Positions 41,496-58,227 are shown, counted from the stretch's first letter. The stretch is 64,000 bases of DNA from Anaerolineae bacterium (GCA_049972045.1 JBMFKS010000001.1:11536-75535); one strand, 5' to 3'. Notes: generated by a model not told the origin, from the sequence alone. Numbers and translations: made by a program.

Positions 41496-41500
41496 GGAGT

Positions 41501-42877
41501 ATGGAGTATGGGGTAGGAAGTAGGATGATGAGTCAGGCGGTGTTGTTTGAAGTGGAGGCCGAGTACGCGGGGGCCGAAGCCCGGAGGCTGGAGCAGAAAT
41601 ATGCCCATCGGATGCGGGAGGAGCTGCGGATGGGCCCCCTGGTCTCGTATGTGGGCAACAAGGAGGTTCCCCTTCTCCGTCTCTACCGCTACAAAGAGGC
41701 CTTCACATTCCGGTTCGTGGACGAGTGGCTCACCCGCTTCGGGGTGAATCGGGAAGACACCGTCTTTGACCCCTTCTGTGGAATGGGCACCACGCTGCTG
41801 GCGGCATCTTGTCGTGGGATATCCGCCATCGGCACCGATCGTCTGCCGGTGGCGGTGCTCATCGCCCGCACGCTGCCGCTTTTCTTTCAGGTCCGCCCGG
41901 GAGAACTGACTCGCATCTTTGAGTGCTTGCAGCACATTGTCCCTTCCGCCGAACCGGCCCCCGTCGCGGCCGACGTGGCCATTATGGGCGTCGCGTTCTC
42001 CCCGGATACTCTGCTGGCCCTGCGGCGCTGGAAGGCCGCCATTGACGGCCTGGAATCGCCGTTCCGGGAGATTTTCCTGCTCCTCTTTTTCTCGGTCCTG
42101 GAGCCCTGTAGTTACACATCTAAAGACGGCCAGTTCCTGCGGTTGAAGCGCACCAAGCGGCCAGCGGATCCGGAGGAGGCGCTGGCGGGAAAAGTGCAGG
42201 AGGCCGAAACGGACATCCGGTGGGTTCGGGAATTGGGCTGGGACATCGCCTTCCGGCCGTTCCGGGTCATTCTCGGCGACACCCGGCGGCTGGACGAGGT
42301 CCCCTTTGATCGCCCTCCGACGGTTATCATCACCTCTCCACCCTATGCCAATCGGTACGACTATACCCGGACCTACTCCCTGGAGCTCTGTTTCCACTTC
42401 GTCCGGAACTTTGACGAACTGAGGGAACTGCGGCACAGCCTGCTCCGTTCCCACATTGAGGCCCGACTTTCGCCTACGGAAGAAGCCCCCCATCCGGCCG
42501 TGCGGGAACTGGTGGACTTTCTGCGAGCGCGCGGCAAAGCGCTGAACAACCCCCGAATCCCGGATATGTTAACCGCGTACTTTGTGGACATGCAGAAAGC
42601 CATCCGGGAGTGGAGGAGAGTGTTGGCCCCTTCGGCACGTGTGGCGATGGTTGTGGACAATGTACGCTTTGAGGGCCGGATGCTTCCGGTGGATCTGATC
42701 CTTTCTGAAATGGCCGAGGAAGAGGGTTTCGCTGTGGAGGAAATCGTCGTCGCTCGGTACAAGGGGAACAGTTCCCAGCAAATGGGCCGCTACGGGCGCG
42801 TCCCGGTCCGGGAGAGTATCGTTGTCTGGAGGAAGCAGGGATGGCTTCGGACTCCCGACATCAAACCTGGTTTCTAG
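41501..42877 (+). CDS. DNA methyltransferase (amino-MTase; motif I FCGMGTT, motif IV SPPY)
   Basis: DPFCGMGTT at ~aa 90 and ITSPPYANRYDY at ~aa 320, separated by a long TRD-like region. SPPY favours N4-cytosine/N6-adenine amino-MTases. Lower GC than flanks. Confidence 0.7.
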   Translation: MEYGVGSRMMSQAVLFEVEAEYAGAEARRLEQKYAHRMREELRMGPLVSYVGNKEVPLLRLYRYKEAFTFRFVDEWLTRFGVNREDTVFDPFCGMGTTLLAASCRGISAIGTDRLPVAVLIARTLPLFFQVRPGELTRIFECLQHIVPSAEPAPVAADVAIMGVAFSPDTLLALRRWKAAIDGLESPFREIFLLLFFSVLEPCSYTSKDGQFLRLKRTKRPADPEEALAGKVQEAETDIRWVRELGWDIAFRPFRVILGDTRRLDEVPFDRPPTVIITSPPYANRYDYTRTYSLELCFHFVRNFDELRELRHSLLRSHIEARLSPTEEAPHPAVRELVDFLRARGKALNNPRIPDMLTAYFVDMQKAIREWRRVLAPSARVAMVVDNVRFEGRMLPVDLILSEMAEEEGFAVEEIVVARYKGNSSQQMGRYGRVPVRESIVVWRKQGWLRTPDIKPGF

Positions 42878-43776
42878 ACCAACTGACCAAGAGCGAGTTC
42901 TTCCATCAGAAACTCCATGAGTGGAAGATGCTATCGGTAGCCGAAGCCATTGAGGTTTTTAGAGGGGAAACCCTGGAATGGAACCTCTCCGACCTGGGCA
43001 TTTCTCAGTCCGCCTGGAACAGGGTCATCCACAGAGGGATCAGACCGGTCACTGTCTTTGCCCACCCGGATGTGCTGATGAGCATCCCCGGTTCTACGGG
43101 CTATTACCGGATGCTCTCTATGGTCTCCCAGAAATCTATGGCACGGGTGGGCCTGGCCGTGAATGCCTACGAGACGGGCGCATCTGCTCCCGACCGGGCC
43201 GCAGCCGAGCAAATTGCCCGTCATCTGAATCAGATTATCAGTCGCCTAATGGAGTTTGACGAGAAAGTCAATGCCCGGGAGTTTGACCTCTGGCGCGGCA
43301 TGGCAGCGGGAACCCAGGCGCAAGGTTCCTGGCAGAACGCCAAAGGCGAGCGCGCGGAAGCCCTGGTGAAAGGCCTGATCCAGCGGAGACTGCGTGAACG
43401 AGGCTGGGTGGTTGCGGAAAGCGCAGACGGCAGGCGTATGGAACTCTCTGACGGTCGCCTGGTTACCGTTGGCGACGAGCCCGATATCGCGTTCTACAAG
43501 GGAGGCCGAATTCGGGCGGCGGTAGAAGTCAAAGGCGGCATAGACCCCGCGGGCATTCTGGAACGTTTGGGTGCGGCAATGAAAAGTCTGGCCCGGGCCC
43601 GGGAAGAGAACCCCACTGCCGTGACCATCATGGTCGTTCAAGGTGCATCGCTCACCGATAGAGCCCGGGCGGACCTGGACCTCAACCGCCATATCATCAC
43701 CCACTGGTTTACCGTAGAGCGCCTTCTGACCGAAGAGGCCACCCGGGCCGAGGTTTTTGAACTATTGAATATCTAA
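42841..43776 (+). CDS. putative type II restriction endonuclease (PD-(D/E)xK-like)
   Basis: Overlaps the MTase 3' end by 37 nt. Candidate nuclease motif ...VTVGDEPDIAFYKGGRIRAAVEVKGG (D...E-V-K). No other family match recognisable. Confidence 0.5.
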   Translation: MASDSRHQTWFLDQLTKSEFFHQKLHEWKMLSVAEAIEVFRGETLEWNLSDLGISQSAWNRVIHRGIRPVTVFAHPDVLMSIPGSTGYYRMLSMVSQKSMARVGLAVNAYETGASAPDRAAAEQIARHLNQIISRLMEFDEKVNAREFDLWRGMAAGTQAQGSWQNAKGERAEALVKGLIQRRLRERGWVVAESADGRRMELSDGRLVTVGDEPDIAFYKGGRIRAAVEVKGGIDPAGILERLGAAMKSLARAREENPTAVTIMVVQGASLTDRARADLDLNRHIITHWFTVERLLTEEATRAEVFELLNI

Positions 43777-43849
43777 CCACGGAACAGGTAATACCCATTG
43801 CGTTTGTTTCGGCCAGCGCCGATCGCCCGGACGTAAACATCCGGGCTCA

Positions 43850-44060
43850 TCATGCGAAGCCCCTCGGGGCGAGCCCCGTCGGCCACGCCGCGAGCGGCGC
43901 CTCGGGCGAGCCTCGGCGTGGCCCTCGCCGCGCCACGCGCCGAAGGCCTTGGCCCGAAGGGCCTTCGGCCCGAGGGCGCTCGCGCCGAGGCCTTGGGCCG
44001 AGGGCCCCGCGGCCCGAGGGCGTGGCGGGGCGTGGCCCTTCGGGCTTTTTGAGAGCCCCC
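43850..44060 (-). repeat. GC-rich ~150-200 bp repeat (R family), copy 1
   Basis: The reverse complement shares ~60 bp near-identical with 57920-58090 (ccacgccctcgggccgcggggccctcggcccaaggcctcggcgcgagcgcccctcggg). It creates spurious Arg/Pro/Ala ORFs. Confidence 0.5.
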
Positions 44061-44747: not shown

Positions 44748-46574
44748 ATGCTCTCCGAACTCCACATCCGCGATTTCGCCATCATAGACGAACTCCACCT
44801 CTCCCTGCCCTCCGGCTTCATCGTCCTGACCGGAGAGACGGGCGCGGGGAAGTCCATCATCATTGACGCCGTCGGCCTGGTGCTGGGGGGACGGGCCGAC
44901 CCCACCGTCGTGCGCGCCGGCGCCGACCGGGCCCTGGTGGAGGCCGTCTTCCGGCTGAGTCCGGCCCATCAGGCCGCCCTGCGCCCCCTCCTGGAGCGAG
45001 AGGGCCTGGAGGGTGACGAACCCGACCTCCTCATCCTCTCCCGCGAAGTGCGAGCCGAAGGGCGGAGCATCTGCCGGGTCAACGGTCGGGCGGTCACCCT
45101 GGCCCTCATGCGGGAGGTGGCCGAGGGGCTGGTGGACATCCACGGCCAGAGCGAGCATCTCTCCCTCCTGCGGGTGCGGGAGCACATCCACATGCTGGAC
45201 CGGTTCGCCGGCCTGGAGGAGGCCCGGGCCCGCGTGGCCGACCTGGTCGCCCAAGTGCGGGCCGTCCGGCGGGAGCGGGCCGGCCTGGAGCAGGACGAGC
45301 AGGAGCGGGCCCGCCGCATAGATCTCCTCCAGTACCAGATGGCCGAGATTGAGGCCGCCGGCCTCCGCCCCGGCGAAGAGGAGGAACTGGCCGAGGAGCG
45401 GGTGCGGCTGGCCAACGCCGAACAACTCTCCCTCCTTCTGGCCGACGCGCTGCGGGCGCTGGACGAGGGCGGCGAAGCGGGCCGCCCTGCCACCGACCAG
45501 TTGGGCCACGCCCTGCGGGCCTTAGAGGGACTGGCCCGCATAGATAGCACCCTCGCCCTTCGCCAGCAGGAGGCCGAAGAACTCCTCTACCGCCTCCAGG
45601 ACCTGGCCGACAGTCTGCGGGAATACCGGAATCGGGTGGAATTCAACCCGCGTCGGTTGGCCGAAGTGGAGGAACGGCTGGACCTCATCCGTCGCCTGAA
45701 ACGCAAATACGGCGCCACCGTTGCCGAAGTGCTGGAATACGCCCGTCGGGCGGCGGCGGAACTGGAGACCCTCGCCCACAGCGAGGAGCGCATCGCCGAA
45801 CTGGCCGCCCGGGAAGCCCAACTCCTGGACAAACTGGCCCGTGCGGCGCTGGACCTCTCCGCCCGCCGTCGGGAGGCCGCAAGACGGCTAGCAGCGGGCA
45901 TTGAGGCCGAACTCCAGGACCTGCGCATGTCCGGTGCCCGCTTTGCCGTGGATTTCCGCTGGACCGCCGACCCCGAGGGCGTCCCGCTGGACCCTGAAGA
46001 CGTCGCGGCGGCGGGCATAGACGTGGGCGATTTCCCTCTTCCGGCCCGCGTCGGTTTTGATGCTACCGGCATAGACCGGGTGGAGTTTCTCGTCTCCCCC
46101 AACCCGGGCGAACCCCTCAAGCCGTTGACCAAAATCGCCTCCGGCGGCGAGACCTCCCGGCTTATGCTGGCCCTCAAGGCCGTTCTCTCCCGCGTGGACG
46201 AGACCCCCACGCTCATTTTTGACGAGATTGACCAGGGCATCGGCGGACGGGTGGGCGCGACGGTGGGGGAGAAACTCTGGCGGCTCACGGTAGCCGATAT
46301 CAACGGCGGCGTGGCCCATCAGGTCCTCTGCGTCACCCACCTGCCACAACTGGCCAGTTTCGGCGACGCCCACCTGCGGGTGGAGAAAATCCCCCTGGAG
46401 GGTCGCACCGTCACCCGGCTGACGGTCCTGGAGGGGCCGGCACGGGTGGAGGAACTGGCCCAGATGCTGGGCGCCAGCGGCGAATCCGCCTACCGGAGCG
46501 CGAGGGAGATTCTGGAGGAAGCGGGAAGCCGGAAGGGCATTGTACAAACGGTGGAACAATGTTATAAACGATGA
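44748..46574 (+). CDS. recN: DNA repair protein RecN
   Basis: MLSELHIRDFAIIDELHLSL...GFIVLTGETGAGKSIIIDA (Walker A), long coiled coil, C-terminal ...LIFDEIDQGIGG (Walker B). Confidence 0.85.
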   Translation: MLSELHIRDFAIIDELHLSLPSGFIVLTGETGAGKSIIIDAVGLVLGGRADPTVVRAGADRALVEAVFRLSPAHQAALRPLLEREGLEGDEPDLLILSREVRAEGRSICRVNGRAVTLALMREVAEGLVDIHGQSEHLSLLRVREHIHMLDRFAGLEEARARVADLVAQVRAVRRERAGLEQDEQERARRIDLLQYQMAEIEAAGLRPGEEEELAEERVRLANAEQLSLLLADALRALDEGGEAGRPATDQLGHALRALEGLARIDSTLALRQQEAEELLYRLQDLADSLREYRNRVEFNPRRLAEVEERLDLIRRLKRKYGATVAEVLEYARRAAAELETLAHSEERIAELAAREAQLLDKLARAALDLSARRREAARRLAAGIEAELQDLRMSGARFAVDFRWTADPEGVPLDPEDVAAAGIDVGDFPLPARVGFDATGIDRVEFLVSPNPGEPLKPLTKIASGGETSRLMLALKAVLSRVDETPTLIFDEIDQGIGGRVGATVGEKLWRLTVADINGGVAHQVLCVTHLPQLASFGDAHLRVEKIPLEGRTVTRLTVLEGPARVEELAQMLGASGESAYRSAREILEEAGSRKGIVQTVEQCYKR

Positions 46575-46795
46575 GAAAAAGTAAGATGTATTCAGCGACG
46601 ATTTCGTCAAAGTACCAGATTGTCATCCCTCGCGCGGTGCGGAAGCGGTTCGGGTTGAAACCGAAGCAGAAGGTGGTTTTTATCCCCCTGGGAAACACCT
46701 TGCGCCTGGTGGTCGTTCCGCCCATAGAGCATGCTCGGGGGATGTTCCCCGGCATAGATACCGATGTGGCCCGCGAAGAGGATGAGGAGCGATGA
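46571..46795 (+). CDS. AbrB/MazE/SpoVT-family (swapped-hairpin) small DNA-binding protein
   Basis: MYSATISSKYQIVIPRAVRKRFGLKPKQKVVFIPLGNTLRLVV is a looped-hinge-helix motif. No cognate toxin gene follows. Confidence 0.55.
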   Translation: MRKSKMYSATISSKYQIVIPRAVRKRFGLKPKQKVVFIPLGNTLRLVVVPPIEHARGMFPGIDTDVAREEDEER

Positions 46796-48222
46796 ACGGG
46801 ATGGACTCACCAGACTGGCTGGAGTACCTGGCGAACGGCCCCAAGGAGTACCCCCAGTCCGAACCCTTTGACCTTCTTCTCACCGGCGGCTTGCTGGTCA
46901 CCGGAGCGGGCATCCGGCGGGCCGACGTGGGCATCCGCGGCGAGGCCGTCGCCGCCGTTGCCCCGGACCTACAGGGCCACCCCGCCCGCGAAGCCATAGA
47001 CGTGACCGGCCATTACATCCTCCCCGGCGCCATAGACGTCCACGTCCACCCCGTCTACGAGGACGATGTGGAGGCCTGTTCCCGCGTGGCGGCTTACGGC
47101 GGCATCACCACCCTCCTCCACTTCGCCTATGCCCGCACCGGCGAGAGCCTCCTGGAGCAGGTGGAGCGGATGTTAGAGGACGGTCGGGCTCGCTCCCGGC
47201 TGGACTTTGGCCTCCACGGCGGCCTCTTTGAGGCCCCGCGCCAGGTCCCCGAAATCCCCCGGGTGATGGAATTGGGCGTCCGTACCTTCAAATTCTTCCT
47301 GGCCTACGTCAAGCAGAAATGGTACACCGATGACTACCACCTGCTCTGGGCGATGCACCTCCTGGCGGAACGGGGTGGCATGGCGATGGTTCATGCCGAA
47401 AATGGCGGCGGGATTGACTATCTGGAGGACCGCTACTGGGAGGAACTGGGCGGGCCCGATGCAGCGCACTTCTTCAGCGTCTCCCACCCCTCAGCGCTGG
47501 AGGAGGAAGCCGTCTTTCGGGCCATCTGCATGGCCGAAGTGGCCGATTGCCCCCTCTACGTCGCCCATGTGACCTCCGCGCGGGCCCTGCGGCCCATCCG
47601 CCAGGCCCGGGCGGAGGGGCGGCGGGTCTTCGCCGAGACCTGTGCCCAGTACCTGACGCTGACCGAAGATCTTTTGCGAACGCGCGGCGCGCTGGCCAAA
47701 ATCGGCCCGCCGCTGCGCACCGACGCCGATCGGGAGGCCCTCTGGCAGGCCCTGGCCGACGGCACCCTCTCCGTCGTCTCCTCCGACCACGCGCCCAAGC
47801 GCAAAGAACCCTTCGGCGACTTTCGGGAGCAACCCTACGGGTCGCCGGGCCTGGAGACGCTCCTGGTCGTCACCCACGACGAGGGCGTCAACCGGGGACG
47901 CATCTCCCTGGTGCGGCTGGTCCAGGTCCTCGCGGAGAACCCCGCCCGCATCTTCGGCCTTTACCCGAAGAAGGGCACGATTGCCGTCGGCTCCGATGCC
48001 GACATCGTCGTCTTTGACCCCCGACGGGAAAGGACCATCCGGGCCCAGGAGATGCATTCGGGGGCCGGATACACCCTCTACGAAGGCCGGACCGTCCTGG
48101 GCTGGCCCGTGATGTCGTTTCAGCGGGGGCATCGGGTGCTCTGGGAGGGGGAAGTGGTCGCCGAACCGGGGGCGGGGCAGTTTCTGCCCCTCCTGGAATC
48201 TCCCCCGACCGCGCCCCTTTAG
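46792..48222 (+). CDS. cyclic amidohydrolase (dihydropyrimidinase/D-hydantoinase-like)
   Basis: ILPGAIDVHVHPV (HxH metal site) plus other amidohydrolase-fold motifs (carboxylated Lys region, VSSDHAP). 476 aa. Confidence 0.75.
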   Translation: MNGMDSPDWLEYLANGPKEYPQSEPFDLLLTGGLLVTGAGIRRADVGIRGEAVAAVAPDLQGHPAREAIDVTGHYILPGAIDVHVHPVYEDDVEACSRVAAYGGITTLLHFAYARTGESLLEQVERMLEDGRARSRLDFGLHGGLFEAPRQVPEIPRVMELGVRTFKFFLAYVKQKWYTDDYHLLWAMHLLAERGGMAMVHAENGGGIDYLEDRYWEELGGPDAAHFFSVSHPSALEEEAVFRAICMAEVADCPLYVAHVTSARALRPIRQARAEGRRVFAETCAQYLTLTEDLLRTRGALAKIGPPLRTDADREALWQALADGTLSVVSSDHAPKRKEPFGDFREQPYGSPGLETLLVVTHDEGVNRGRISLVRLVQVLAENPARIFGLYPKKGTIAVGSDADIVVFDPRRERTIRAQEMHSGAGYTLYEGRTVLGWPVMSFQRGHRVLWEGEVVAEPGAGQFLPLLESPPTAPL

Positions 48223-48232
48223 AGCAGAAAGA

Positions 48233-48264
48233 TCGGCGGCGGGCGGCTTCGCCGCCCGCCGCCA
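48233..48264. terminator. perfect GC palindrome GGCGGCGGGCGGC-ttcg-GCCGCCCGCCGCC (bidirectional terminator candidate)
   Basis: It lies between the convergent hydantoinase and miaA genes. A near-identical hairpin recurs at 60151-60187. Confidence 0.45.
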
Positions 48265-48310
48265 ACTCCCAAACAAAACAGGGGGCCGAGGGCGTCGCCG
48301 TCGGCCATCC

Positions 48311-49240
48311 TCACCTCAGCCATTCCCGGACCGCTGCCAGAATCTCCTCCGGCGGCGTCCGGGCGGCGTCAAACCAGCGGATGCGCGGGTCGCTGGGGCG
48401 GAACCAGTTGTACTGGTGGCGGATGAACCGCCGGGTGTCCCGCCGAATGTGCGCCAGCACTTCCTCCAGCGTCGCCCGGCCCTCAAAGTACGGACGGAAC
48501 TGCCGGTAATTGAGGGCCGACATGGCCGGCAGATCCCAGCCGTATCCGGCCTCCAACAATCCCCGGATTTCCTCCACCAGCCCCGCTCGGACCATCTCCT
48601 CCAGCCGCGCGTCGGCGCGGGCATAGAGGGCCGGCCGGTCCATCGTCAGTCCGATCTGGAGGGCGTCGTAGGGTGGGGGGATTCGGCCCGGCCTCGCGGG
48701 GCCGGCGCGCAGGGCAACCTCCAGCGCTCGCACGACCCGGCGGGGGTTGCGAGGGTCCACGCGGGCGGCGGCCTCGGGGTCCAGCGCGGCCAGGCGGGCC
48801 AGGAGGGCTTCCAGCCCCTCCCGGCGGGTCTGCTCCTCCAGTTCGGCCCGCAGGGCGGGGTCCGGGGGGACGGCGGGGGGAGTCCAGCCCTCCACCAGCG
48901 CGCGGATGTACTGTCCGGTCCCGCCCACCACAATGGGCAGACGGCCGCGCGCGCGGATGTCGGCAATGGCCGCCTGCGCCAGGCGCAAAAAACGGGCCAG
49001 CCCCACCGTGTCATCAGGGTCCGTGATGTCTATCAGGTGGTGGGGGACCCTGGCCCGTTCCTCCGGGGTCGGCTTGGCCGTGCCGATGTCCATCCCCCGG
49101 TAGAAGAGGCGGGAATCGGCAGAGACCACCTCTCCCTCCAGACGTTCGGCCAGGTAGAGGGAGAGGGCGGTCTTGCCCACTGCCGTCGGCCCCACGATGA
49201 CCAGGACCTTAGCCGACGGTCCGGGAATGGAATCGGACAT
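48311..49240 (-). CDS. miaA: tRNA dimethylallyltransferase MiaA
   Basis: VLVIVGPTAVGKTALSLYLAERLEGEVVSADSRLFYRGMDIGTAKPT is the canonical MiaA P-loop and N-terminus. Confidence 0.85.
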   Translation of the reverse strand: MSDSIPGPSAKVLVIVGPTAVGKTALSLYLAERLEGEVVSADSRLFYRGMDIGTAKPTPEERARVPHHLIDITDPDDTVGLARFLRLAQAAIADIRARGRLPIVVGGTGQYIRALVEGWTPPAVPPDPALRAELEEQTRREGLEALLARLAALDPEAAARVDPRNPRRVVRALEVALRAGPARPGRIPPPYDALQIGLTMDRPALYARADARLEEMVRAGLVEEIRGLLEAGYGWDLPAMSALNYRQFRPYFEGRATLEEVLAHIRRDTRRFIRHQYNWFRPSDPRIRWFDAARTPPEEILAAVREWLR

Positions 49241-49637
49241 AGGTCAGCGTGCGGGTGATCAACTCCTTGGCCAGGAACAGTCCCTGCAAGTCGCGGGCCA
49301 GCACCTGTCCGACGGCGAGGGTATCCTTCGCCCCCTGCAGGGGAAGCCCGATCGCATCCAAGCGGAGCAGGCTGGGCTCTCCTTCCTCCCCCACCAGCAG
49401 AGTATCGATCCGGGCGGCGATTTTCCGCTCCGTGGGCGTCCCGCTGTAGCGCTTCCAGAGCACGTACAGCAGATAGGCGTAGAGGCCGTTCACGTGGAGG
49501 ATGTTCAGGAACTTGGAGACGGTGTGGGCGATCTCCTCCCCGCTCAGCCGGTCTTCCATCCTCAGGCCGTCCACGATGCGACGGGCATAATCGGCGCAGT
49601 AAAAGTCCAGGTTTTCCACCGCTTGTTGAACGCCCAT
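49209..49637 (-). CDS. Cmr5/Cas11-like small alpha-helical subunit
   Basis: 142 aa, all-helical. ...VSKFLNILHVNGLYAYLLYVLWK matches the conserved Cmr5 core (P.MILSNGLLQTLAFLLAK pattern). AAGGAGGGAAC RBS. Its 3' end overlaps the miaA start by 32 nt. Confidence 0.55.
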   Translation of the reverse strand: MGVQQAVENLDFYCADYARRIVDGLRMEDRLSGEEIAHTVSKFLNILHVNGLYAYLLYVLWKRYSGTPTERKIAARIDTLLVGEEGEPSLLRLDAIGLPLQGAKDTLAVGQVLARDLQGLFLAKELITRTLTYVRFHSRTVG

Positions 49638-49640
49638 CGT

Positions 49641-49720
49641 TCCCTCCTTATCCCTACTCCCTACTTCCTACTCCCTACTTCCTACTCCCTACTTCCTACT
49701 CCCTACCCTCTACTCCCAGA
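49641..49720. repeat. purine heptamer tandem repeat (mRNA sense GGAGUAG/GAAGUAG, 9 units) spanning the cmr4 stop and cmr5 RBS
   Basis: Plus strand has ctactcc/ctacttc x9 from 49654 to 49716. Every unit carries UAG and a GGAG-like SD. Confidence 0.7.
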
Positions 49721-50703
49721 TTCAACACCCGCAGCCGTCCCATCCCCCGGGTGTTTTTGCCGCCGATACCCAGGTATTCCACATAGTGCAGTCCTTTCTC
49801 CACCTGAGCCTGCACCCAGGCGATGTCCTGAGGGATGGGCTGACCGTCCAGCAGGAAGTCGCGCGGGTTCTTGTAGACCATCTGGAAGGAGAAGAGGGTA
49901 GCACGCGGGATCGCCTCGTAGGTGTAGAGGGCGCCGGTCAGCGCCGCGCCTGTGGAGCGGTCAATCGCCGTGGACGTGCGCACTTCCAGGTTATTGTTGA
50001 CCACCTGGGAGAACAGTTCGTCCGGCACCAGCACCAGTCGGTTCAGTATCTCCTCCGGCACGTTCGCTTTCTTCAGGCGGGCCACCCCCGAGGGGGTCAG
50101 CGGGGAGGTGGGGACGGCGACCGGCAACAGGAGCCAACCCAGGTTCAGCCGACGGCCCGGGAGCCCCGTCTGCAGGCGGAAGCCGTGCTCCGGCTTCAAC
50201 TGGATGTCCACATCTTTCGCGTCCAGCGCGCCTGACTGGACCAGTTCCTTCAGCCGCTCCGGCGAGGTCACCCAGACCGGCCCGAGCATGGAGGGGGCGG
50301 GGAAGAAGAGGGGGAAGCCGTCAAAGGCCTGGACCATGCTGGGGGAGGTGCGGCCCCCGGGCTGGAGGAAGCCGTACGGGATACAGACAGGGCAATCCAC
50401 CCGGCCGCAGGCCCCGTCTTTTCTGCCCGTGGGGCCGGTCTGGTCGGCGCAACTGGCATAGCCGACCACGCCCGGCTTCACCTCCACCGGTCGGCGGTAC
50501 TTCTCCGGGTAGTGCATAGCGGTGTAGGTCCGGGCGACGCCGGCCAGACTGGTCGCCGGGATTTTGGGCAAGTTGGTGGCCGCGTCCCGGACGATGGGAT
50601 TATCCACCCGCCCCATCTGCATCTCCCCGCTGCCAATGTGGACGGGGTCCAGGGCCAGCGCGTAATACGTTTTCCGCAGATACGGCATGCTCACTTCGGC
50701 CAT
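49696..50703 (-). CDS. cmr4: Cmr4-like RAMP (Cas7 family) with zinc-finger insertion
   Basis: It aligns motif-by-motif with P. furiosus Cmr4: LDPVHIGSGE...GRVDNPIVRD (catalytic Asp position), IPATSLAGVARTY, YTYEAIPRATLF, G-rich loop YLGIGGKNTRGMG. An extra CADQTGPTGRKDGACGRVDCPVC insertion is present. Confidence 0.8.
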   Translation of the reverse strand: MAEVSMPYLRKTYYALALDPVHIGSGEMQMGRVDNPIVRDAATNLPKIPATSLAGVARTYTAMHYPEKYRRPVEVKPGVVGYASCADQTGPTGRKDGACGRVDCPVCIPYGFLQPGGRTSPSMVQAFDGFPLFFPAPSMLGPVWVTSPERLKELVQSGALDAKDVDIQLKPEHGFRLQTGLPGRRLNLGWLLLPVAVPTSPLTPSGVARLKKANVPEEILNRLVLVPDELFSQVVNNNLEVRTSTAIDRSTGAALTGALYTYEAIPRATLFSFQMVYKNPRDFLLDGQPIPQDIAWVQAQVEKGLHYVEYLGIGGKNTRGMGRLRVLNLGVEGRE

Positions 50704-50715
50704 CTCTCTCCTCTC

Positions 50716-51801
50716 TCAGGCAGGGATTCCCAGTAACCGGTCCAGCGCATCGGACAGGGCCGCCAGGGTGGGGAAGGTCTGCCACCCTACGTCTTTCAGG
50801 ACCACTACCCCCTCCGGTTCATCCACCCCGGAGACCTTCAGGTGGGCCTGACCGAAGCCGCGAGTGCTCTTGCTGGAGAAACCGTGGACGCGCAGCATCA
50901 GCACGATGGCCTCCCCCAGAGCCCGCAGGTCCTCCCGGACTTCCGGAAGGGCTTCTTCCGCCGTCCGGTCCATCAGGTCAAAGGGGAGGTAGAGGAGGGT
51001 GAAGACGCCCGAAGCGCCGGGCGGTACCGTCTCCAGGAGAACGGGCACCGTTCCGGCGCGGGTCCTGCGGCTGTGGGGGTTGATCACTTCCAGTCCGATG
51101 CGGTCAAAGTAGGTGGGGTAGGGACGGATCCGCCCCAGCATATTCCCCTCTTCGGCCAGTTCCTCCTCCTCATCCCGGGCCTGCCCGAAGAGGCGAAGGA
51201 GCAGCGGCGACGCCTCCCCTTCCGGCAACTGGCGGGTCAGGACGGTGCGCAGGATGCCTTTCCAGGTGCTGGCCCGGATCATGGGGACCTTGAAGACGCT
51301 GTCTTTCATCACCGGATTTTCGTGGATGTAGAACTCGTCGTCGTCCTTGCTGTAGAAGGAGCGGGCCAGTGTGAAGCGGAACTGGATGTAGGCCGAAAAG
51401 GGCGGCAGGTCCTGGAGGTTGATGCGGGGCGGGTAGATGCCCAGCCGGGCCAGTTGCTCCAGCCCGGGGCGGATGACTCCTTCTATGTACGGGGAGTCGC
51501 CCTTGCGCCGATACACCACTCCTTTATATCCGCCGCCGAAGCGGGGATGTCCGCTGCGGGCGAACTCCTTGACGTCGCTGGTCAGCCCCTGGGCCAGCAG
51601 GGAGACCTGGGCATAGGGCCAGACCAGTTCCCGATACGGCTCCTTATGATCGCCGACGATGCGGCGGACGTCGTCCTGGGTTTCGCAGGGGTAAGCGGCG
51701 TAGAAGTCGTAGGGGGGTCGGCGCTCCCCCGGCGGGGCCGGTCGGCGATTCCCCTCGCCCCGGGACGGGGGGCCAGATTGGGGTCGCGGTTTAGAGTTCA
51801 T
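50716..51801 (-). CDS. Cmr6-like RAMP (Cas7 family)
   Basis: VPMIRASTWKGILRTV (RAMP GSSxKG-type motif) and C-terminal G-rich loop GFSSKSTRGFG. Start chosen at MNSKPRPQ (GGAGG RBS), overlapping the upstream gene's stop by 11 nt. Confidence 0.6.
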   Translation of the reverse strand: MNSKPRPQSGPPSRGEGNRRPAPPGERRPPYDFYAAYPCETQDDVRRIVGDHKEPYRELVWPYAQVSLLAQGLTSDVKEFARSGHPRFGGGYKGVVYRRKGDSPYIEGVIRPGLEQLARLGIYPPRINLQDLPPFSAYIQFRFTLARSFYSKDDDEFYIHENPVMKDSVFKVPMIRASTWKGILRTVLTRQLPEGEASPLLLRLFGQARDEEEELAEEGNMLGRIRPYPTYFDRIGLEVINPHSRRTRAGTVPVLLETVPPGASGVFTLLYLPFDLMDRTAEEALPEVREDLRALGEAIVLMLRVHGFSSKSTRGFGQAHLKVSGVDEPEGVVVLKDVGWQTFPTLAALSDALDRLLGIPA

Positions 51802-52669
51802 CCAACACCTCCCCTCCGGTACGGGTGTCCGAAACGCCCAGCCGCTGGAGGGTCGCCATAACCTTCTCCAGCATCTCCCGGTCCCGGGCATATCCCCAGA
51901 AGCGGTGGACGGTCTGGAAAGAGAAGACCTTCTTGCTCACCCCGCGCCGTCCGCTGAGGAAGCCCGATGGGTCCACCCGGACCAGTTCGTTGACCTGGCT
52001 CAGGTCCAGATAGCGCCCGGTGTTGAAGAAGAAGAGGCGCAGGTCAGGCCATTCCGGTGGGGCCCGACGAAGCCGCTCCTGCATACGGGAAGAGTTATCC
52101 AGGATGCGAGCCAGCCATGCCTGGACGTCCTTCCGGGTGATGTTGGTGGGGAGGCGCAGCGGGGAGGCCAGCGTCACCAGGCCGTAATCCGGCTGAGGCG
52201 GCTTGAGGGTCGTCTTGCCGCCCAAGGAGCCGTAGCGGGTGATGAGCCAGACCGCCTTCGCCAACAACCAGCGCTCCTCCGCTTCGGTGGGCTTTACCTC
52301 CACGAAATTCATCGTGAAGGAGATGCCGGGCTGGCTGAGGTTGACCTCGTACCCGCCCTCCCCGTCGGTGAGGAGGAGGCGCAGTTTGCTGCTCCAGCCG
52401 CTGCATCCGAAGAGTCGACAGGCCGGACAGACATCCCGCAGGCCATCTTCCGGTTCGCCGGTCCGGCCGTAGGCCACTTCGTCAAAGGAGCACCGCTCGT
52501 CCCCGGTGGGGTCGCAGGCGTATCCGCCCAGACCCCGGATCAACGCCTCTGTCCACCAGCGGACGGAGCCCATCAGGCTACTCTCCTTTGCCTGCTCTGA
52601 CGTGCGCTCCACGTCCCCGGTCCAAATCGGGGCTAACGTTCGCAGGCTCACCACAATAGTTCGGGGCAT
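51791..52669 (-). CDS. Cmr1-like RAMP (Cas7 family) with zinc-finger
   Basis: PIWTGD...LMGSVRWWTEALIRG matches the Cmr1 SxxxKGxxRWWxRAL motif. CDPTGDERC...CPACRLFGC forms a treble-clef. AAGGAG RBS before the ATG at 52669. The ORF-track start at 52768 is a TTG. Confidence 0.6.
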   Translation of the reverse strand: MPRTIVVSLRTLAPIWTGDVERTSEQAKESSLMGSVRWWTEALIRGLGGYACDPTGDERCSFDEVAYGRTGEPEDGLRDVCPACRLFGCSGWSSKLRLLLTDGEGGYEVNLSQPGISFTMNFVEVKPTEAEERWLLAKAVWLITRYGSLGGKTTLKPPQPDYGLVTLASPLRLPTNITRKDVQAWLARILDNSSRMQERLRRAPPEWPDLRLFFFNTGRYLDLSQVNELVRVDPSGFLSGRRGVSKKVFSFQTVHRFWGYARDREMLEKVMATLQRLGVSDTRTGGEVLDEL

Positions 52670-52976
52670 AGAGGACTCCTTTCCTTGGGAGACAGACAAG
52701 GGGCCACTGAAAGGGATAGTCGTTGGCCTTCCGTGGCGTCTGATATAGTTTAGCATCCAATTATCCAAAAGTCAAGCCAGCAGCACGATGCGAGGATACA
52801 AGCAACCAGCCTCAGCGGTGAATGTCAGTCGGCTATTGGCGTGGTGTGGCAATCATCTGAAGAAAGGGGGAGCCCATCTGGCAATATTGTTGGCCTGAGG
52901 AATTCAGAAGAAAGGACAAGCGCCCTGGAGGGCTATCCAGCCCTTTCACCGGCTTACTAAAATTTGAACAATCACT

Positions 52977-53052
52977 CGCGAGCCGCCGCAGGCGGCGAAG
53001 CGATCTCCCGGCCCGCGGGGGATTGCTTCGGGCACTCCGCCGCCCCGAGGGG
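52977..53052. repeat. ~75-bp palindrome-containing repeat element (copy 2)
   Basis: cgcgagccgccgcaggcggcgaagcgatctcccggcccgcgggggattgcttcgggcactccgcc matches 14749-14821. It is followed by a CACGAAG-type cluster at 53040-53100. Confidence 0.55.
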
Positions 53053-57919: not shown

Positions 57920-58090
57920 TACGCAGTCGGGGGATTGCGCCTCGGGCGAGAAGCCCCCTCGGCCACGCCGCGCCACGCCCTCGGGCCGCGGGGCCCTCGG
58001 CCCAAGGCCTCGGCGCGAGCGCCCCTCGGGCTGAGCCTTCGGGGCGGGGCCCCTCGCTGGGGCTCGGCGCAACGCTGGCGGCCCGCGCTA
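57920..58090 (+). repeat. GC-rich repeat (R family), copy 2
   Basis: Shares ~60 bp with the reverse complement of 43850-44060. A partial third copy lies at 60040-60110. Confidence 0.5.
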
Positions 58091-58227
58091 CAGAGCGTTC
58101 GTAGTCAGGAGCGAAGTGGCGCTCAAACGGCACTTCACTTCGTTCCGTGCTGCACTACGAGCAGCAGGCCCCCTCGCTGCTGCTCGGGGCGGGGCTGGCG
58201 GCCTGCGCTCCATCGCCGTAGCGTAAG

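Follow-up and report, generated by a model that had tools for sequence, protein, structure and literature searches.

A 64-kb stretch of DNA from an Anaerolineae bacterium (GCA_049972045.1, JBMFKS010000001.1:11536-75535), here called the window, carries four closely spaced open reading frames (ORFs) on the minus strand, at positions 49209-52669. They code for homologs of subunits of Cmr-type effector complexes, which belong to the type III CRISPR-Cas systems. Such a module, with the gene order cmr1-cmr6-cmr4-cmr5, had been proposed in an initial annotation of this DNA. The ORFs were found where that annotation had placed them, they agree with the public gene calls on the 139-kb contig JBMFNK010000001.1 of the metagenome-assembled genome (MAG) GCA_049970195.1, and all motifs which it had quoted are present in the translations. 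With about 9 kb added on the left (L127) and about 8 kb on the right (relatives' contigs, L125), our analysis covers about 81 kb of this contig. The features of the locus are listed in Table 1.

Table 1. Features of the four-gene locus, given in 5' to 3' order on the minus strand (window coordinates).
Feature	Position	Strand	Description
sigma-70-like promoter	52747..52775	-	TTGACT, 17-nt spacer, TAAACT, TG upstream; ~78 nt 5' of the cmr1 start
cmr1-like	51791..52669	-	292 aa; Cas7-group RAMP; conserved four-Cys zinc motif (YACDPT..C...CPAC)
cmr6-like	50716..51801	-	361 aa; 11-nt overlap with the cmr1 stop; R/G/P-rich N-terminal tail
cmr4-like	49696..50703	-	335 aa; Cas7 backbone subunit, predicted slicer
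heptamer repeat, variable number	49646..49717	-	GTAGGGA/GTAGGAA (sense strand); spans the cmr4 stop and the cmr4-cmr5 spacer
cmr5-like	49209..49637	-	142 aa; Cas11 small subunit
miaA (tRNA isopentenyltransferase)	48311..49240	-	Pfam IPPT PF01715; 32-nt overlap with the cmr5 stop
terminator-like hairpin	48232..48266	-	GC-rich, 16-bp stem, 3' of miaA

Only 12 nt lie between the stop of cmr6 and the start of cmr4, a slot which is occupied by cas10 in type III-C loci, and a gap of 58 nt separates cmr4 from cmr5. The site upstream of cmr1 is the single promoter-like site between positions 48000 and 53300. Its TTGAC...TAAA(A/C) element can be aligned across related Thermoflexales loci, the remaining upstream DNA being unalignable. 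In this genome, miaA is probably co-transcribed with the four-gene operon, and the hairpin 3' of miaA likely marks the end of the transcription unit. The flanking genes are those already annotated: miaA (IPPT) and genes for radical SAM, GNAT, and DUF885 proteins.

Three of the four proteins pass the Pfam family RAMPs (PF03787), and the Cmr5-like protein has no Pfam match. The Cmr4-like protein scores 107.5 bits against NCBIfam TIGR02580 (cutoff 87) and matches the PADLOC Cmr4 profile with E = 1.5e-41; upon comparison of its profile with solved chains, the best matches are to Cmr4 (9arw_C, 4rdp, 3x1l_C). The closest of these chains belongs to PDB entry 9arw, which is titled 'guideless DtCmr Type III CRISPR complex'; the title indicates that the structure of a guide-free Cmr assembly has been obtained. 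The Cmr1-like protein reaches 47.7 bits against TIGR01894 (cutoff 28.65), E = 7e-12 against PADLOC Cmr1, and a probability of 100 (E = 1e-69) when aligned by hhalign to III-C Cmr1. Its AlphaFold2 (AF2) model has a predicted local distance difference test score (pLDDT) of 92.5, and its top four Foldseek matches are Cmr1 structures (including 9l7c_A, 4l6u, and 4w8x). For the Cmr6-like protein, two PADLOC Cmr6 profiles give 208.7 bits (PDLC00988, E = 3e-62) and 206.9 bits, and hhalign gives a probability of 100 (E = 1.5e-95) against III-C Cmr6; the score against NCBIfam TIGR01898 is 13.8 bits, with a cutoff of 51.1. The Cmr5-like protein matches PADLOC Cmr5 (CAS-III-C) with E = 1.5e-17 and III-C Cmr5 with an hhalign probability of 99.8. 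Its AF2 model (pLDDT 93.6) is all-helical with six helices, and the top Foldseek matches are the Cmr5 proteins of A. fulgidus, P. furiosus, and T. thermophilus (probability 1.0, TM score 0.65). On the basis of profile, profile-profile, and fold comparisons, we consider the assignments as Cmr1, Cmr6, Cmr4, and Cmr5, which had originally been made from motifs, to be correct. In the profile-profile alignments, Cmr1, Cmr6, and Cmr5 are orthologous to the corresponding III-C proteins over their full length.

Two hallmarks of type III effectors are present, a Cas11 small subunit (Cmr5 profile, AF2 model, and Foldseek) and a Cas7-family backbone protein (TIGR02580 above cutoff) with its catalytic Asp. 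The latter residue, Asp34 in the motif GRVDNP, occurs in all 18 four-gene and all 63 III-C sequences, and we take it to be the slicer residue by homology to D26 of P. furiosus Cmr4. The same invariance is found for Glu240/263 and for four Cys residues, while His22 is present in 18/18 four-gene and 62 of the 63 III-C sequences. The Cmr6-like protein starts with a low-complexity tail of about 30-70 residues, rich in R, G, and P (window positions ~51712-51801), which occurs in most four-gene lineages and is missing from L016, L017, L029, and the III-C Cmr6 of L018. This tail may have been acquired as an extension for binding of RNA.

Type III systems have Cas10 as their signature protein, and Cmr3 (Cas5) is regarded as the subunit which reads the tag of the CRISPR RNA (crRNA) and nucleates the complex. 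Hidden Markov models (HMMs) for Cas10 and Cmr3, built from 64 related sequences, have zero matches in the window, so that both the signature gene and a Cas5-group subunit (Cmr3/Csm4) for binding of the crRNA 5' tag are absent from the locus. The same HMMs find no match within up to 10 kb of the module in about 60 related four-gene contigs. An associated CRISPR array was found neither in the window nor in its flanks (L125-L128), nor within 10 kb of any four-gene locus. The flanking parts of the contig, on both sides, contain housekeeping genes and neither cas10, cmr3, nor arrays; an intact cas10-cmr3 pair with an array, which would point to an ordinary type III locus, is thus not adjacent to the module. 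These results bear out the annotated absence of cas10, cmr3, and arrays from the window and extend it by about 17 kb. Among the 47 other genes of the window, the best 25 of 81 matched PADLOC families include no Cas family, although a weak match to Cas6, Cas1, or Cas2 may rank below these, and an Rfam scan of the window returned one tRNA and nothing else. A hidden counterpart of Cmr3 was also sought among the remaining subunits. Cmr1, Cmr6, and Cmr5 show no similarity to Cmr3 (hhalign probability below 1 for the Cmr1-like and Cmr6-like proteins), and the possibility that the Cmr1-like or the Cmr6-like protein is a cryptic Cas5 was ruled out by hhalign and by fold search.

Relatives of the module were collected in three sets: the contexts of Cmr4 homologs (set 1), a scan of one genome per species, and a metagenome scan with a Cmr5 profile (sets 2-3). 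Loci were classified by ORF calling and family HMMs, with a one-round profile search. In set 1, Cmr4 of the four-gene loci is 47-93% identical, and that of L018, the only six-gene locus in this set, is 49% identical. The closest genome matches come from MAGs of Thermoflexus and Thermoflexales (phylum Chloroflexota). About 60 contigs, representing 15 lineages at 80% Cmr4 identity, carry exactly cmr1-cmr6-cmr4-cmr5 and no other gene of the system; the carriers are Thermoflexales, Anaerolineae, Caldilinea MAGs, Anaerolineales HSG24/25, Latescibacterota, and Poribacteria. At 90% identity, Cmr5 proteins of the four-gene type fall into about 45 clusters, which score 163-235 bits and make up a family set apart by a score gap from III-C Cmr5 proteins (at most 89 bits). 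Those members of the family which bear a database name are called "hypothetical protein". The remaining relatives, 64 bacterial and archaeal loci, are of the III-C type with cas10 and/or cmr3, and their six-gene order is complete wherever the contig permits. Methanothermobacter MTH326-like loci are reportedly examples of III-C in the 2015 classification.

The order of genes in L018 is cmr1-cmr6-cas10-cmr4-cmr5-cmr3, and its Cas10 matches PADLOC Cas10c (CAS-III-C) with 832 bits. The four subunits of the module are orthologous to those of III-C (hhalign probabilities of 99.8-100 for Cmr1, Cmr6, and Cmr5), the catalytic Asp of Cmr4 and the zinc-binding Cys residues are common to both, and Cmr4 of the module falls inside the III-C radiation. 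Because the remaining gene order is identical to that of III-C, we consider the module to be a III-C system devoid of cas10 and cmr3, the cyclase-dead Cas10c being replaced by the short junction between cmr6 and cmr4. The initial annotation had pointed out that the order is not that of III-B, which is correct, but it had not related the order to any known locus, and this part does not hold. None of the 47 full-length III-C Cas10 proteins has a GGDD/GGDE motif, while the N-terminal HD motif (LHDxGK) is kept in most; the lack of the cyclase motif agrees with the published description of III-C Cas10 (PMC11229360). Because the module derives from III-C, its ancestor was already without cyclic oligoadenylate (cOA) signaling, which III-C and the module thus both lack. 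Besides the presence of Cas10c and Cmr3 (Cas5) in III-C, further differences were observed. The C-terminal domain of Cmr1 from the module is about 40-100 residues shorter than in most III-C Cmr1 proteins, although the short form also occurs in III-C loci L059, L061, and L072. The R/G-rich Cmr6 tail of most four-gene lineages has no equivalent in III-C locus L018.

A single bipartition unites the four-gene loci in 100 of 100 bootstraps of two neighbor-joining trees, one built from Cmr4 (81 sequences) and the other from the four concatenated proteins (61 loci). In this reconstruction, cas10 and cmr3 are shown to have been lost once, in the ancestor of the monophyletic four-gene clade. Members of the clade diverge to about 41-47% identity and still retain the four genes, each of which has a pairwise ratio of nonsynonymous to synonymous substitution rates (dN/dS) of 0.07-0.27, indicative of purifying selection. 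The sequence comparison thus shows that at least 15 lineages, belonging to several phyla, have kept the four genes intact and closely linked under such selection.

A dead remnant of a degraded III-C locus might have been expected, given that two subunits held to be essential are missing. Decayed copies do exist: L025 (9272-10981) has lost cmr6 and has a fragment of cmr1 next to a cmr4 ORF of 414 aa, and cmr4 is fragmented in L115 (2279-3172) and L118 (1-738), where frameshifts or assembly errors are possible. Against such a remnant stand the low dN/dS of all four genes, ORFs which are intact across 15 lineages despite their divergence, the invariant catalytic and zinc-binding residues, the conserved order with tight junctions, and the monophyly at 100% bootstrap. 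We thus regard decay as a most improbable explanation for the module as a whole. Monophyly, purifying selection, and retention of the catalytic Asp support the view that the Cas10-less backbone described in the initial annotation is maintained and probably functional.

It might also be argued that the four genes are the backbone of an ordinary III-C or III-B effector, the foot of which (Cas10-Cmr3) is encoded elsewhere, either translocated or borrowed. Our view is limited to about 81 kb of the contig from this MAG and to the locus level for the other carriers, and a Thermoflexus MAG of another species has a complete III-C locus (L067). The role of Cmr3 as crRNA-tag reader, as reported in PMC4215187, would be accounted for as well. 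However, cas10 is located between cmr6 and cmr4, and cmr3 after cmr5, in all 64 III-C loci. Because cas10 and cmr3 are at distinct positions in III-C, a split requires two separate excisions which leave the 12-nt cmr6-cmr4 junction. Furthermore, neither gene occurs in any of the about 60 four-gene contigs over the distance covered, the clade is old and found in many different neighborhoods, and no genome with both a four-gene and a six-gene locus is among the best 80 genome matches. A split system is therefore unlikely in our opinion.

With respect to arrays, the four-gene loci differ from their III-C relatives. Arrays of 7-64 repeats are found within 10 kb of 17/64 III-C loci vs. none of the four-gene loci (Fisher p = 0.03 by lineage, 5e-6 by locus). 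Even so, both kinds of loci are often array-less in a housekeeping context. Several III-C loci of the set L018, L035-L098, for example L018 itself, were seen amid housekeeping genes, as the four-gene loci are.

The neighborhoods of the module were examined for functional clues. Linkage to miaA had been taken as a hint of a role in RNA metabolism. This could not be upheld, as the linkage is restricted to Thermoflexales lineages (it is missing in L010, L012, and L014-L017), and no neighboring gene family is common to distant lineages among the 15. In the PADLOC analysis of 110 neighbor ORFs from 13 representative loci, no Cas family is among the matches listed. Carriage by mobile elements was considered and rejected, as the module has no match in IMG/VR viral contigs and Cmr5 has none in plasmids. 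The Cmr4 genes found on plasmids are distant (37-39% identity) and are all annotated as type III-B.

These neighborhoods bear on the question whether the complex has been exapted for host RNA metabolism or regulation, and would function without crRNA, being either guide-free or equipped with a non-CRISPR guide. In favor of this are the position of the module amid housekeeping genes, with its own promoter and with the co-transcription of miaA predicted here, the lack of arrays, adaptation genes, or a defense-island signature near the loci, the lack of matches in viral contigs and plasmids, and the R/G-rich, RNA-binding-like Cmr6 tail gained in most lineages. However, the miaA linkage does not extend beyond Thermoflexales and no other neighbor is conserved, the distribution is patchy across distant phyla with occasional decay (L025, L115, L118) as is seen for accessory or defense genes, and Cas10-bearing III-C loci are also often array-less and surrounded by housekeeping genes. 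We consider exaptation to be rather improbable.

We favor the reading that the module specifies a Cas10- and Cas5-less, III-C-derived Cmr complex which cleaves RNA and receives its guides in trans, and would assign to it a probability of roughly 55%. By homology with solved Cmr complexes, the four proteins would assemble into a Cmr-type ribonucleoprotein, in which Cmr4 (Cas7) would form a backbone along the RNA, Cmr5 (Cas11) a parallel filament, and Cmr6 together with Cmr1 the cap. Such a complex would pair with complementary RNA and cut it at intervals of about 6 nt via Asp34 of Cmr4, and it would do so without synthesis of cyclic oligoadenylates and without an HD DNase. The guide must come from elsewhere because none is encoded beside the module, and crRNAs from other CRISPR-Cas arrays of the same genome would be its most likely source. 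According to PMC12669027, most III-B and III-C loci are without arrays of their own, and six CRISPR arrays are present in Thermoflexus hugenholtzii, a relative available in culture (PMC8129789). T. hugenholtzii itself was not among the genome matches of our scan. By analogy with these array-poor systems, and given the arrays of T. hugenholtzii, a supply of guides in trans is plausible. The clade-specific R/G-rich tail of Cmr6 may be relevant to holding the guide without Cmr3.

Several candidates for a guide RNA were considered and dismissed. A guide RNA or mini-array beside the module was rejected, as the upstream DNA is unconserved past the promoter and ribosome-binding site, the Rfam scan gave no candidate, and in several lineages the module is flanked on both sides by almost no intergenic DNA. 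In L011, L014, and L030, chains of k-mers which resemble CRISPR turned out to be simple tandem repeats that lack spacers. The heptamer repeat (period 7, 9.6 copies according to Tandem Repeats Finder) was not retained as guide or scaffold either, as its 7-nt period misfits the 6-nt Cas7 register, most lineages do not have it, and the number of copies varies between 0 and 15. Each unit of this repeat is Shine-Dalgarno-like and includes TAG. It was examined in the window and in L003, L005, L019-L022, L101, and L105-L108. Because its copies vary from 0 to about 15 across contigs with identical or >89% identical Cmr4, the repeat behaves as a hypervariable microsatellite.

A number of points weigh against a III-C-derived complex that is guided in trans. 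In PMC4215187, Cmr3 is described as recognizing the crRNA tag, dependent on contacts with Cmr2, Cmr4, and Cmr5. No subunit of the module resembles Cmr3, which leaves the recognition of the guide 5' end or tag without an assigned subunit, and no guide candidate is found near any locus. The missing subunits could be provided by a cas10-cmr3 pair, or by a further type III system, at another place in the genome. The trees were computed by neighbor-joining on corrected identity distances rather than by maximum likelihood. Finally, the module is dispensable in some lineages, because the copies in L025, L115, and L118 are decayed.

A bolder variant, which we put forward tentatively and consider less probable than the reading we favor, is that the module represents a new subtype, that is, an autonomous type III effector. 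Its guide would be loaded without a Cas5 tag reader, possibly from non-CRISPR or chromosomally encoded RNAs, and the complex would control transcripts of host or invader. This would be a third independent route to RNA targeting without Cas10 and Cas5, after III-E and, in part, III-I.

Type III-E had been invoked for comparison in the initial annotation, and the parallel holds for the composition, with three Cas7-like proteins and Cas11 but neither Cas10 nor Cas5. In PMC12669027, III-E (gRAMP/Cas7-11e) is described as having no Cas10 or Cas5, as combining Cas7-like modules with Cas11, and as cleaving RNA in a Cas7 Asp-dependent manner without cOA. The III-E effector is one fused polypeptide derived from III-D2, usually accompanied by arrays and regulatory accessory proteins, whereas the module consists of four separate III-C-derived subunits without accessory genes or arrays. 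The accessory proteins of III-E include TPR-CHAT/Csx29. The single polypeptide with four Cas7 domains and Cas11 which characterizes III-E is not found here, the four ORFs having their own starts and stops; what is shared, at the level of the locus, is an effector without Cas10 and Cas5. In sequence, the module resembles Cas7-11 only marginally (E = 0.044 in NCBIfam; 11.1 bits against NF041225 at a cutoff of 700; PDB profile E ~9e-4).

Among solved structures, those of the III-B Cmr complexes of P. furiosus, A. fulgidus, and T. thermophilus come closest to Cmr4, Cmr5, and Cmr1 of the module, and the subunit roles assumed above (Cmr4 as slicer, Cmr5 as filament, Cmr1/Cmr6 as cap) are borrowed from them. 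III-B systems have a cyclase-active Cas10, Cmr3, and the order cmr1-cas10-cmr3-cmr4-cmr5-cmr6, whereas in the module cmr6 follows cmr1 and cas10 and cmr3 are lacking; neither the III-B gene order nor a cyclase-active Cas10 is thus found. Cmr4 of the module is about 37-39% identical to the plasmid-borne Cmr4 proteins annotated as III-B. III-G, III-H, and type VII follow the same trend, with loss of cOA signaling and a streamlined effector, but have kept Cas10 or a remnant of it (Cas14 in type VII) as well as Cas5. III-G is array-less and has been proposed to borrow crRNAs in trans. III-I, which also follows this trend, has a diverged Cas10, no Cas5, and fused Cas7 domains. None of these four systems is devoid of both Cas10 and Cas5 while having separate subunits.

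Some further elements of the window were recorded. Two intergenic sites (43880-44060 and 57930-58110) share a GC-rich element, about 65 nt long (…GCGCTCGCGCCGAGGCCTTGGGCCGAGGGCCCCGCGGCCCGAGGGCGTGGCG…), in inverted orientation and each time inside short tandem repeats, and a hairpin-like sequence which resembles it is located 5' of the cmr1 promoter (~52977-53010) and 5' of cmr1 in L021. From its sequence, the element looks like a dispersed repeat of the repetitive extragenic palindromic (REP) kind. A type II restriction-modification pair, consisting of an XcyI-like restriction endonuclease and an N4/N6 DNA methyltransferase, is encoded at ~41500-43780, about 6 kb from the module, and a small MazE-like antitoxin gene is located between recN and an amidohydrolase gene (46571-46795). 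These are the sole genes of the defense type or toxin-antitoxin type seen near the module.

No prior description of the variant was found in the open-access text searched, which included the 2011, 2023, and 2025 classification and discovery papers as well as further literature on type III systems without Cas10. The variant is not described in an array-anchored terascale-clustering paper or in a Cas10-anchored survey of type III systems. Such loci escape discovery pipelines which start from Cas10 (PMC11229360) or from CRISPR arrays (PMC10910872). In the 2025 classification, III-E (fused, from III-D2) is the Cas10-less type III. In curated tables, loci such as those described here may go unremarked as "partial III-B/C". 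The module is a III-C derivative which could arguably qualify as a subtype of its own. Its retention across the clade after the loss of two subunits suggests that it forms a functional complex for cutting RNA, of a kind which has apparently not been described.

The loss of both foot subunits with retention of the other four suggests either that a Cmr backbone is self-sufficient or that guides are loaded in a way which has not been recognized. As the cyclase was already gone from the ancestral III-C system, the removal of Cas10 completes an existing reductive trend. A reductive series is thereby filled in, leading from III-B via III-C (cyclase dead) to the variant without Cas10, in parallel to the path from III-D to III-E. 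If active, the module would represent a small, thermostable, four-protein RNA-targeting complex without collateral signaling, which would be of practical interest.

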